Assembly (NCBI RefSeq): GCF_042686025.1
Contig: NZ_JBHUOZ010000001.1
Coordinates: 1,778,424 to 1,810,423, forward strand
Direction: 5' to 3'
Length of the DNA: 32,000 nucleotides
DNA from: Terrimonas rubra
GTDB taxonomy: Bacteria; Bacteroidota; Bacteroidia; Chitinophagales; Chitinophagaceae
Shown: in pieces, positions 18,248-18,540 of the stretch
Layout: every line of letters starts with the position of its first letter
Position numbering within the stretch: position 1 is the stretch's first letter
Made by a program: the position numbers and the translations under genes
The notes under the pieces: generated by a model
The model's input: the letters and a program-made list of their open reading frames with translations, nothing else
Database searches by the model: none
What the model was told of the DNA's origin: nothing

Positions 18248-18540
18248 AAGATCAAAGTCTTAAATGAGCAATAGGCAATGGACAATAGGCAATTGACAAA
18301 TGATAGTTGACAAGTGACAATGGGCAATAAGCAATTGGCAAAAGAAGGCTGATTATTCATTGATCACTATTCTTTGCTGATCAGTGAACCGGAAGATGCA
18401 GTGTGCGACGCAAGGAACGATGATAGCATTTCTACAACCGATTACAAACTGATGGTATTCAGTATATAGTATTTAGTATACAGAAGGAAAACCTGATACA
18501 GCACGACAACCTCAAACCTTATACCTTAAACTTTAAACCC
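18248..18540. repeat. Mosaic intergenic repeat, copy A, built of degenerate heptanucleotide arrays
   Basis: There are 11 phased 7-mers at 18268-18344 (gcaatag gcaatgg acaatag gcaattg acaaatg atagttg acaagtg acaatgg gcaataa gcaattg gcaaaag). Four NNNGTAT units follow at 18452-18479 and about 5 AACCTTA units at 18508-18540. Blocks 18315-18341 and 18438-18512 are identical to the reverse complement of copy B. Confidence 0.85.

Follow-up and report, generated by a model that had tools for sequence, protein, structure and literature searches.

Heptanucleotide arrays and a dispersed 72-nt repeat in an intergenic spacer of Terrimonas rubra

The short tandemly repeated repetitive (STRR) sequences of heterocystous cyanobacteria are built from a few fixed heptamer consensus units. 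Dispersed repeats such as ERIC/IRU, BOX and REP/BIME occur in tens to hundreds of copies, lie between genes near gene ends, are often alternating or inverted, form modular mosaics and are restricted to particular lineages. Here we analyse a 293-nt spacer of Terrimonas rubra in which heptamer arrays and a dispersed repeat stand side by side; it occupies positions 18248-18540 of the window, a 32,000-nt stretch (C1:1778424-1810423) of the genome under study (G000; 5.02 Mb, 42.7% G+C). As summarised in PMC4679880, Mrazek 2007 found that in most prokaryotes the long simple-sequence repeats have heptanucleotide units more often than units of any other length. MacGregor 2015 (PMC4679880) described direct repeats of TAACTGA in Beggiatoaceae, cyanobacteria and five Bacteroidetes. 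For the Bacteroidetes that study also reported other repeated heptamers, which in Gramella and Aequorivita share spacers with TAACTGA (PMC4679880). The initial annotation of our spacer had known of no equivalent description for Bacteroidota, and that study supplies one. Rehm 2015 (PMC4692102) reported a strand rule that does not depend on gene orientation: for up to 50 bp downstream of a stop codon the coding strand is the G-rich one, and in the 50 bp ahead of an open reading frame (ORF) it is the non-coding strand that is G-rich.

The spacer lies between two minus-strand genes, an SNF2-family helicase gene (upstream in transcription) and a major facilitator superfamily (MFS) transporter gene (downstream). 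We read it, with moderate confidence, as a non-coding mosaic of two independent repeat systems and not as one designed element. Periodicity was estimated from the lag-7 match fraction (i.e. the share of bases equal to the base 7 positions on), using 1000 dinucleotide shuffles as the control. We observed a value of 0.497 for the whole spacer against 0.271 in the shuffles (z 9.1), and 0/1000 shuffles reached it. By segment, z was 7.2 at 18268-18344, 5.5 at 18452-18540 and 3.1 in the middle block, 18345-18451. The initial annotation had described the spacer as built entirely of phased heptamers in four arrays. Reading the sequence in steps of 7 recovered all four arrays where they had been placed, and Tandem Repeats Finder (TRF) called three of the four (18269-18321, 18461-18480 and 18508-18539). 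The arrays cover roughly half of the 293 nt; 'entirely' therefore has to be dropped, since 18375-18446 is a dispersed repeat without period 7 and 18480-18507 is a non-periodic anchor. Nor is the spacer a unique construction, since the composite of which it is one copy occurs a second time in inverted form.

The largest array, on the plus strand at 18268-18344, consists of 11 degenerate heptamers of the GCAATNG/GACAATN type (canonical class AATTGAC) with a lag-7 match of 0.686 (z 7.2), and 9 of its 11 units fit RCAANNG. This class is the commonest in the genome, with 41 arrays. It is followed at 18352-18372 (plus strand) by three ATTNNTC-like units, attattc, attgatc and actattc, which make a weak array of three copies that TRF did not call. 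Four NNAGTAT heptamers (NNNGTAT) occupy 18452-18479 on the plus strand; this array is kept in the relative G003 and in the contig of a near-identical strain, and the same heptamer makes an arm beside a PF05635 gene at C1:1729690. The plus-strand anchor ACAGAAGGAAAACCTGATACAGCACGAC at 18480-18507 runs on into AACCT and recurs with its flanking arrays as a module, with further copies at C1:1347749 and C1:1856698. The last array (18508-18540, plus strand) holds about five AACCTTA heptamers (AACCTCA AACCTTA TACCTTA AACTTTA AACCC) and abuts the SNF2 stop codon, TTA at 18541-18543 (TAA on the minus strand). On the SNF2 sense strand it reads TAAGGGT TTAAAGT TTAAGGT ATAAGGT TTGAGGT, with G in excess of C and rich in stops. 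We also observed that modules of AGTAT array, anchor and AACCTTA array lie close together on C1, in a stretch of about 60 kb (1796671, 1803607, 1821474, 1852673 and 1856673), which suggests local spread of the module within this region (C1:1796671-1856700).

We then compared the whole genome with an order-3 Markov shuffle, counting TRF arrays with a score of at least 40. Period-7 arrays numbered 294 against 0 in the shuffle, and period-14 arrays 266 against 30, so that both the period-7 signal and its recurrence elsewhere in the genome stand. Of 402 arrays, 94% lay outside crude ORF calls. The arrays fell into 79 unit classes, with 75% A+T and a median of 4.7 copies. The top units (AATTGAC, AATGATG, AATTATG, AAAGCTG and AAACCTT) contain one or two isolated G and no G-runs, and G-quadruplex formation therefore cannot apply here. 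Where two arrays lay less than 150 nt apart, 72 pairs were unrelated, 9 inverted and 10 direct. Period-8 arrays were enriched as well (75 against 1 in the Markov shuffle, score at least 40), which would mean that the slippage-prone unit size is not strictly 7.

The arrays fall into an established class, the heptanucleotide simple-sequence repeats. With the long simple-sequence repeats of Mrazek, Guo and Shah 2007, as these are summarised in PMC4679880, they share that they are tandem, over-represented, intergenic, numerous in a genome and variable between relatives, with slippage as the proposed origin. The earlier label 'STRR-like' holds for tandem, degenerate, intergenic and over-represented heptanucleotides that change by indels between near-identical strains; it fails for the centre of the spacer, which is a separate repeat family. 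The arrays are like cyanobacterial STRR in kind but are not members, since they lie in Chitinophagaceae and are AT-rich, short and divided among 79 classes. Like the TAACTGA repeats (PMC4679880), they are intergenic heptamer direct repeats, many of them directly upstream of starts in a fixed orientation; however, that study followed one unit, whereas here there is no dominant unit and stops (156 arrays) outnumber starts (88). With the GGGAATC/GGGGAYT repeats of Xanthomonas and Nostoc (Rehm 2015, PMC4692102) they share the strand rule, variation in length and sequence between close relatives, and inverted pairs. They differ from these in having no G-runs for G-quadruplexes, the central idea of that paper, and no preference for four units (PMC4692102).

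The arrays follow a strand rule. Array position within a spacer correlated with GC skew (Spearman -0.57, p 4e-35): arrays in the left fifth had G>C on the plus strand in 68:3 and those in the right fifth C>G in 77:12, independent of the orientation of the flanking genes. We took arrays within 40 nt after a stop codon as stop-adjacent (156) and those within 40 nt before a start codon as start-adjacent (88). On the sense strand, 112 stop-adjacent arrays were G>C and 12 were C>G, with stops in all frames in 90 of the 156; start-adjacent arrays were C>G in 54 and G>C in 11, and 56 of the 88 were without ATG, GTG or TTG. Whichever side of a gene the arrays are on, they are C>G when read towards that gene. 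As many as 61 of 174 start-side arrays ended within 25 nt of the start codon and must therefore lie in the leader, and 49 of these 61 were C>G in sense. The polarity was lost for arrays at least 60 nt from both ORFs (n 116, rho -0.07), indicating a gene-boundary effect; chirality of the arrays across whole intergenic regions is thereby ruled out. Interior, unpolarised arrays made up 155 of the 399 that were classified.

The same polarity was seen in small samples of G003 and of the congener G004. The target spacer fits the rule at both ends, with a TAAGGTT-type array after the SNF2 stop and, at 18268-18344, G 20 : C 10 on the plus strand, i.e. C 20 : G 10 when read in the sense of the MFS gene, which lies downstream on the minus strand. 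Leaders that carry no array are also G-poor (skew -0.20), so the leader half of the rule fits the general composition of Bacteroidota leaders; the trailer half is unexplained. PF05635 genes were considered as a reason for the exceptions to the rule and were rejected, as only 2 of 28 exceptions fit. The published rule of strand and position therefore holds for AT-rich units that are unable to form G-quadruplexes, and only within about 60 nt of ORF ends. Since it holds without G-runs, the G-quadruplex explanation of Rehm 2015 (PMC4692102) is not general. The cause that is pointed to is a set of gene-boundary constraints, i.e. stop-rich, C-poor trailers and G-poor leaders free of start codons.

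The second system is a 72-nt dispersed intergenic repeat, the core, with the consensus TGCTGAATAGC..CTGCAG..AAGTGTGCGACGCAA..GTACTGCAGCCGGTAAC. The spacer carries one copy on the plus strand, found with nhmmer at 18375-18446 (C1:1796798-1796869), and iterated nhmmer gave 266 copies genome-wide, of which about 90% are intergenic. Period 7 was absent from the core: the family mean lag-7 match was 0.234, below the baseline of 0.253, and the copy at 18375-18446 had z 1.9. The arrays and the core are independent systems, because core-less congeners are equally dense in arrays, few cores lie near arrays and the core has no period 7. Period-7 arrays per 100 kb were 10 in G001 and 8 in G004, the two core-less congeners, and 5.8 in G000. 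An array lay within 150 nt of 78 of the 266 cores, and about 100 of 759 arrays were within 200 nt of a core.

The core forms a previously undescribed family within the familiar category of dispersed intergenic repeats. Using a covariance model built on sequence only, we found it in 14 of 24 other Chitinophagaceae genomes and in 0 of 16 from other families of the order; by the same model it was absent from two of four congeners (G001 and G004). Its conserved 24-mer, AAGTGTGCGACGCAAGGNACGATG, was found as an exact match in Terrimonas, Hydrotalea, Lacibacter, Limnovirga, Filimonas and Parafilimonas records. The central palindrome is only 7-9 nt long. It is kept in the main variants GTGTGCGACGCAA, CGGAGCGTCGCAA and GTGAGTGACACAA, with a compensatory C:G to T:A change (192 against 29 copies). 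The palindrome centre, GTGCGA^CGCAA (window 18414/18415), is also an insertion hot spot: the envelope exceeded 84 nt in 16 of 266 cores, and the copies that were read carry an insert at this point. Cores with a central insert lie at G000 C3:1566833-1566877, C1:597794-597832 and C1:697782-697841, and at positions 1379-1409 of the contig of the near-identical strain (L205).

Neighbouring cores less than 4 kb apart were inverted in 31 cases and direct in 1, and orientation was random beyond 10 kb. In G006, which belongs to another genus, neighbouring cores less than 4 kb apart were inverted to direct in 28:8; pairs less than 150 nt apart all had the same (-,+) arrangement (8/8), and those at 150-4000 nt were 20 inverted to 8 direct. 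The end of the core that carries GGTAAC points towards whichever gene is nearer (91:44 and 96:32). Recent local duplication was rejected as the source of the inverted neighbours, as adjacent cores were no more alike than random pairs (0.56-0.62 against 0.61). A transposase between inverted cores was also rejected, as only housekeeping genes were found there (e.g. ClpP, thiolase and the ATP synthase alpha subunit).

Several roles for the core were evaluated and set aside. It is not a structured RNA: Rfam gave nothing at the gathering threshold and only noise at E<=10, the mean fold z was -0.1 on both strands (the long form also being about 0), RNAalifold returned only a 2-bp helix, and the mutual information reflects linked subfamily blocks. 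Coding was rejected, since each strand has one open frame but it is the palindrome that is conserved and not the residues, with no third-position pattern. A role as promoter carrier was rejected with TAnnTTTG at the right junction in only 14/264 copies, association with terminators with a hairpin and T-run nearby in only 25-38/264, and a hairpin formed by the arrays that flank a core with complementary left and right flanks in about 4-6/264, no better than controls. Among features of mobile elements, the plasmid and phage databases gave no match to the core, and its ends TGCTGAATAGC and GCCGGTAACA are not complementary, so that the terminal inverted repeats of a MITE are lacking. No target-site duplication was seen in three filled/empty comparisons with G003, in which the borders are blurred and the neighbouring arrays differ too. 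No transposase was identified with the core, and no search aimed at PF01797 (Y1, RAYT) was made.

In its behaviour the core is nearest to ERIC, BOX and BIME. Compared with ERIC/IRU, BOX and REP/BIME, on features drawn in part from PMC2817692, it is alike in copy number, intergenic place, orientation, mosaics and lineage restriction. It differs from ERIC/BOX/BIME in having no stable stem-loop or palindrome, no terminal inverted repeats and no Rfam similarity, and in 24-mers that are exact across genera. The alternating orientation of REP/BIME is present (31:1; 28:8 in G006), but the GC-rich stem-loop palindrome is absent (fold z -0.1). Many spacers also hold, beside cores and arrays, a further dispersed element that resembles REP, the hairpin GGTTCGTG-NNN-CACGAACC (flanks of C3:2399763, C3:758087, C3:9456 and C3:2656269).

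Further period-7 stretches had been pointed out in the window at 24901-24991, 27860-27901 and 28629-28858, and all three are real recurrences. The first belongs to the same composite in inverted form, on the minus strand at 24893-25191 after the stop codon of the SET gene, with 87 nt at 97% identity and a core of the CGGAGCGTCGCAAC type at 25046-25118. In the two inverted composites the flanks match base for base in two blocks (75/75 and 27/27), the core region that these enclose is only 74% identical, and the two cores belong to different subfamilies. Such identical flanks around cores of different subfamilies would be best accounted for by ectopic conversion among cores. The third stretch is another mosaic spacer (28623-28883, plus strand; lag-7 z 7.3), in which TAAGTNA and GCTGAAA arrays at 28626-28708 abut the DapB start codon; the 72-nt core that it has in common with the target (28620-28860) is a third copy, at 28703-28771. 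The remaining one, at 27858-27899, is a perfect 42-nt palindrome of AGATCT-type heptamers, with three units in each 21-nt arm (100% identity). It contains no gene, lies in an 85-nt spacer between two minus-strand genes and may act as a terminator. Heptamers of this type also form arms around a PF05635 gene at C1:477359.

The spacers turn over by indels. L205, the metagenome-derived contig of the near-identical strain, shows almost no substitutions in the target spacer relative to G000, but three large indels (+20, +31 and +64 nt). The +20 nt lies in the GCAAT array. The +31 nt stands exactly at the core palindrome centre, as a GC-rich insert CCCCGAGTTCCGC...CTCGTCGGGGCAGG beside a patch of family-typical core variants. 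The +64 nt duplicates a module of the CACGACAACCT anchor plus a TGAACTT-type array, and G003, like the near-identical strain, has one extra copy of this module of anchor and array. The flanking genes of G003 are about 90% identical, and its two inverted spacers are both without the core and the GCAAT array and have kept the AGTAT/anchor/AACCTTA module. At another site (C1:1760640-1760891, orthologous to G003:C4 ~97,900-98,300) the flanking genes are highly similar but the repeat content is wholly different, with a GCTGAAA array in one spacer, whereas the other combines a TAATTTGG array with a core and a terminator hairpin.

Some arrays stand beside genes of the PF05635 family (23S rRNA intervening-sequence protein, Avd-like). 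G000 has 12 such genes. Of the 12 loci that were read, 11 are over the family cut-off and one is a partial match (C1:370684-371040, C1:475856-476218, C3:2122927-2123319 and 9 more), and most stand between complementary heptamer arrays. In the search of relatives, congeners with the core had 10-12 copies and core-less congeners 3-4. PF05635 cassettes with inverted flanks are known from the intervening sequence of Coxiella (PMC4990558), with a link to Avd (PMC10053308), and the arms in G000 use the unit families of the window. The cases differ in that the target spacer has no PF05635 gene and that the G000 cassettes lie between protein genes and not in 23S rRNA.

In the mosaic reading that we favour, the heptanucleotide arrays, of the long simple-sequence-repeat/STRR class, would most likely be born and changed by replication slippage together with small local duplications. 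Beside genes they would persist in only one strand orientation, presumably through selection: just after a stop the sense strand would be kept C-poor and stop-rich, and just before a start G-poor, as in Bacteroidota leaders generally. The second component would be one copy of the Chitinophagaceae-specific 72-nt repeat, gained and lost between close relatives, and this core appears to exchange sequence with about 265 paralogues by ectopic conversion, to which the identical flanks around unlike cores and the patch of family-typical variants in L205 both point. Some observations weigh against this reading. The +20 nt in the GCAAT array of L205 cannot be divided into whole 7-nt units, which means that some process besides pure unit slippage is at work. 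Sequence downstream of stops that carries no array has no GC skew, and the 112:12 bias is therefore not simply local composition and needs a cause. The inverted heptamer arms that bracket PF05635 genes suggest that some arrays, at least, have their origin in cassettes. The inverted neighbours, the orientation of the GGTAAC end and the cross-genus 24-mers of the core hint at a function or mechanism beyond 'neutral debris'. One alternative is that the arrays are functional cis-elements of transcripts, acting as unstructured single-stranded RNA, repeated every 7 nt within leaders and trailers, that binds oligonucleotide-binding (OB)-fold proteins (ribosomal protein S1, cold-shock proteins) or as Rho loading sites that insulate genes. 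In the Rho variant, sequence that is C-rich and G-poor when read towards the gene would block read-through and antisense transcription. The polarity, which is strict and close to the boundary at both gene ends with C>G on reading into the gene, speaks for such a role, as do the 61 arrays that end so close to a start. MacGregor 2015 (PMC4679880), which notes that CspB binds one heptamer per protein, proposes S1/Csp binding for heptamers just upstream of starts, and Rehm 2015 (PMC4692102) found most such repeats transcribed in Xanthomonas. However, the 79 unit classes have no motif in common beyond composition, close relatives differ at orthologous sites by gain, loss or replacement of arrays although their genes are kept, which is unusual for required regulators, and the interior arrays are unpolarised. 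We therefore consider this role rather unlikely.

It was also considered that the arrays are arms, or leftover arms, of hairpin-type PF05635 cassettes, the spacer being a cargo-less or re-loaded site and the core an alternative cargo or scar. Of the 12 PF05635 loci, about 9-10 are indeed bracketed by a left G-type and a right C-type arm, whatever the gene strand, the arm units match those of the window (GACAATT, AAACCTT, AGTAT, AGATCT), and one cassette has a core between arm and gene (C1:1729745). The palindrome at 27858-27899 would be a gene-less form made of such units, array pairs 150-600 nt apart are inverted in 5:1, and PF05635 is homologous to Avd, the accessory protein of diversity-generating retroelements (PMC10053308). 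In the target spacer, however, the left and right arrays are not complementary (GCAATNG against AACCTTA) and there is no PF05635 ORF. The flanks of cores are complementary no more often than in controls, arrays separated by less than 150 nt mostly have no relation to each other, the loss of polarity away from ORF boundaries is not what cassettes of fixed chirality would lead one to expect, and the PF05635 copy number does not track core presence (G024, for example, has 1 gene and 105 cores). We take such an origin to be unlikely, a minority explanation. A broader form, in which arrays and core are products of one uncharacterised intergenic DNA-turnover system linked to Avd-like PF05635 cassettes, appears quite unlikely to us. 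If it were true, the system would insert, replace and invert short modules at gene ends, giving both the G-then-C polarity and the inverted neighbouring cores, and the heptamer period would be the step size of its machinery and not the result of ordinary replication slippage. Lastly, the composite of about 290 nt could be the terminal inverted repeat of a mobile or invertible unit carrying the 6.4-kb SNF2-GNAT-H1-like-MgtE-SET segment. The two composites are inverted, bracket this segment and share the 97% and fully identical blocks given above. Yet the segment with its inverted flanking modules is syntenic in G003, and the segment in G002 too; no transposase or recombinase lies inside the 6.4 kb, no target-site duplication is evident, the arms hold different core family members, and inverted cores genome-wide bracket ordinary housekeeping genes. 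We regard this last explanation as highly improbable.

The two neighbouring genes are on the minus strand. The SNF2-family helicase gene (18541-21396, 951 aa) matched PF00176 at 7.7e-68 and PF00271. The MFS transporter gene (16952-18247; PF05977, PF07690) encodes 419 aa from an ATG at 18211 or 431 aa from a TTG at 18247. At 18219-18226 on the minus strand we read a candidate Bacteroidota -7 box, TACCTTTG, which may be the MFS promoter; TAnnTTTG peaks genome-wide 0-30 nt upstream of called starts. Apart from the MFS promoter and the SNF2 3' end that it carries, the spacer probably serves no dedicated function as a unit. Within the 6.4-kb segment, a lysine/alanine/proline-rich H1-like ORF (window 22283-22939) has coding DNA that is a tandem repeat of 27-nt period (TRF scores up to 289). 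Elsewhere in G000, a reverse-transcriptase domain (PF00078, 6.4e-27) lies inside a 512-aa open frame at C3:2472564-2473205 (L183).

Heptamer repeats of bacteria have been on record for decades without an explanation. The present spacer is a well-characterised new example of them and not a new kind of element, equivalents having been published before. Spacers of this type should be flagged as hypervariable in annotation, as they are useful strain markers and an assembly hazard. The core, which is Chitinophagaceae-wide, with about 100 to several hundred copies per genome and boxes shared across genera, lends itself well to a search for a protein that binds it or an enzyme that mobilises it.

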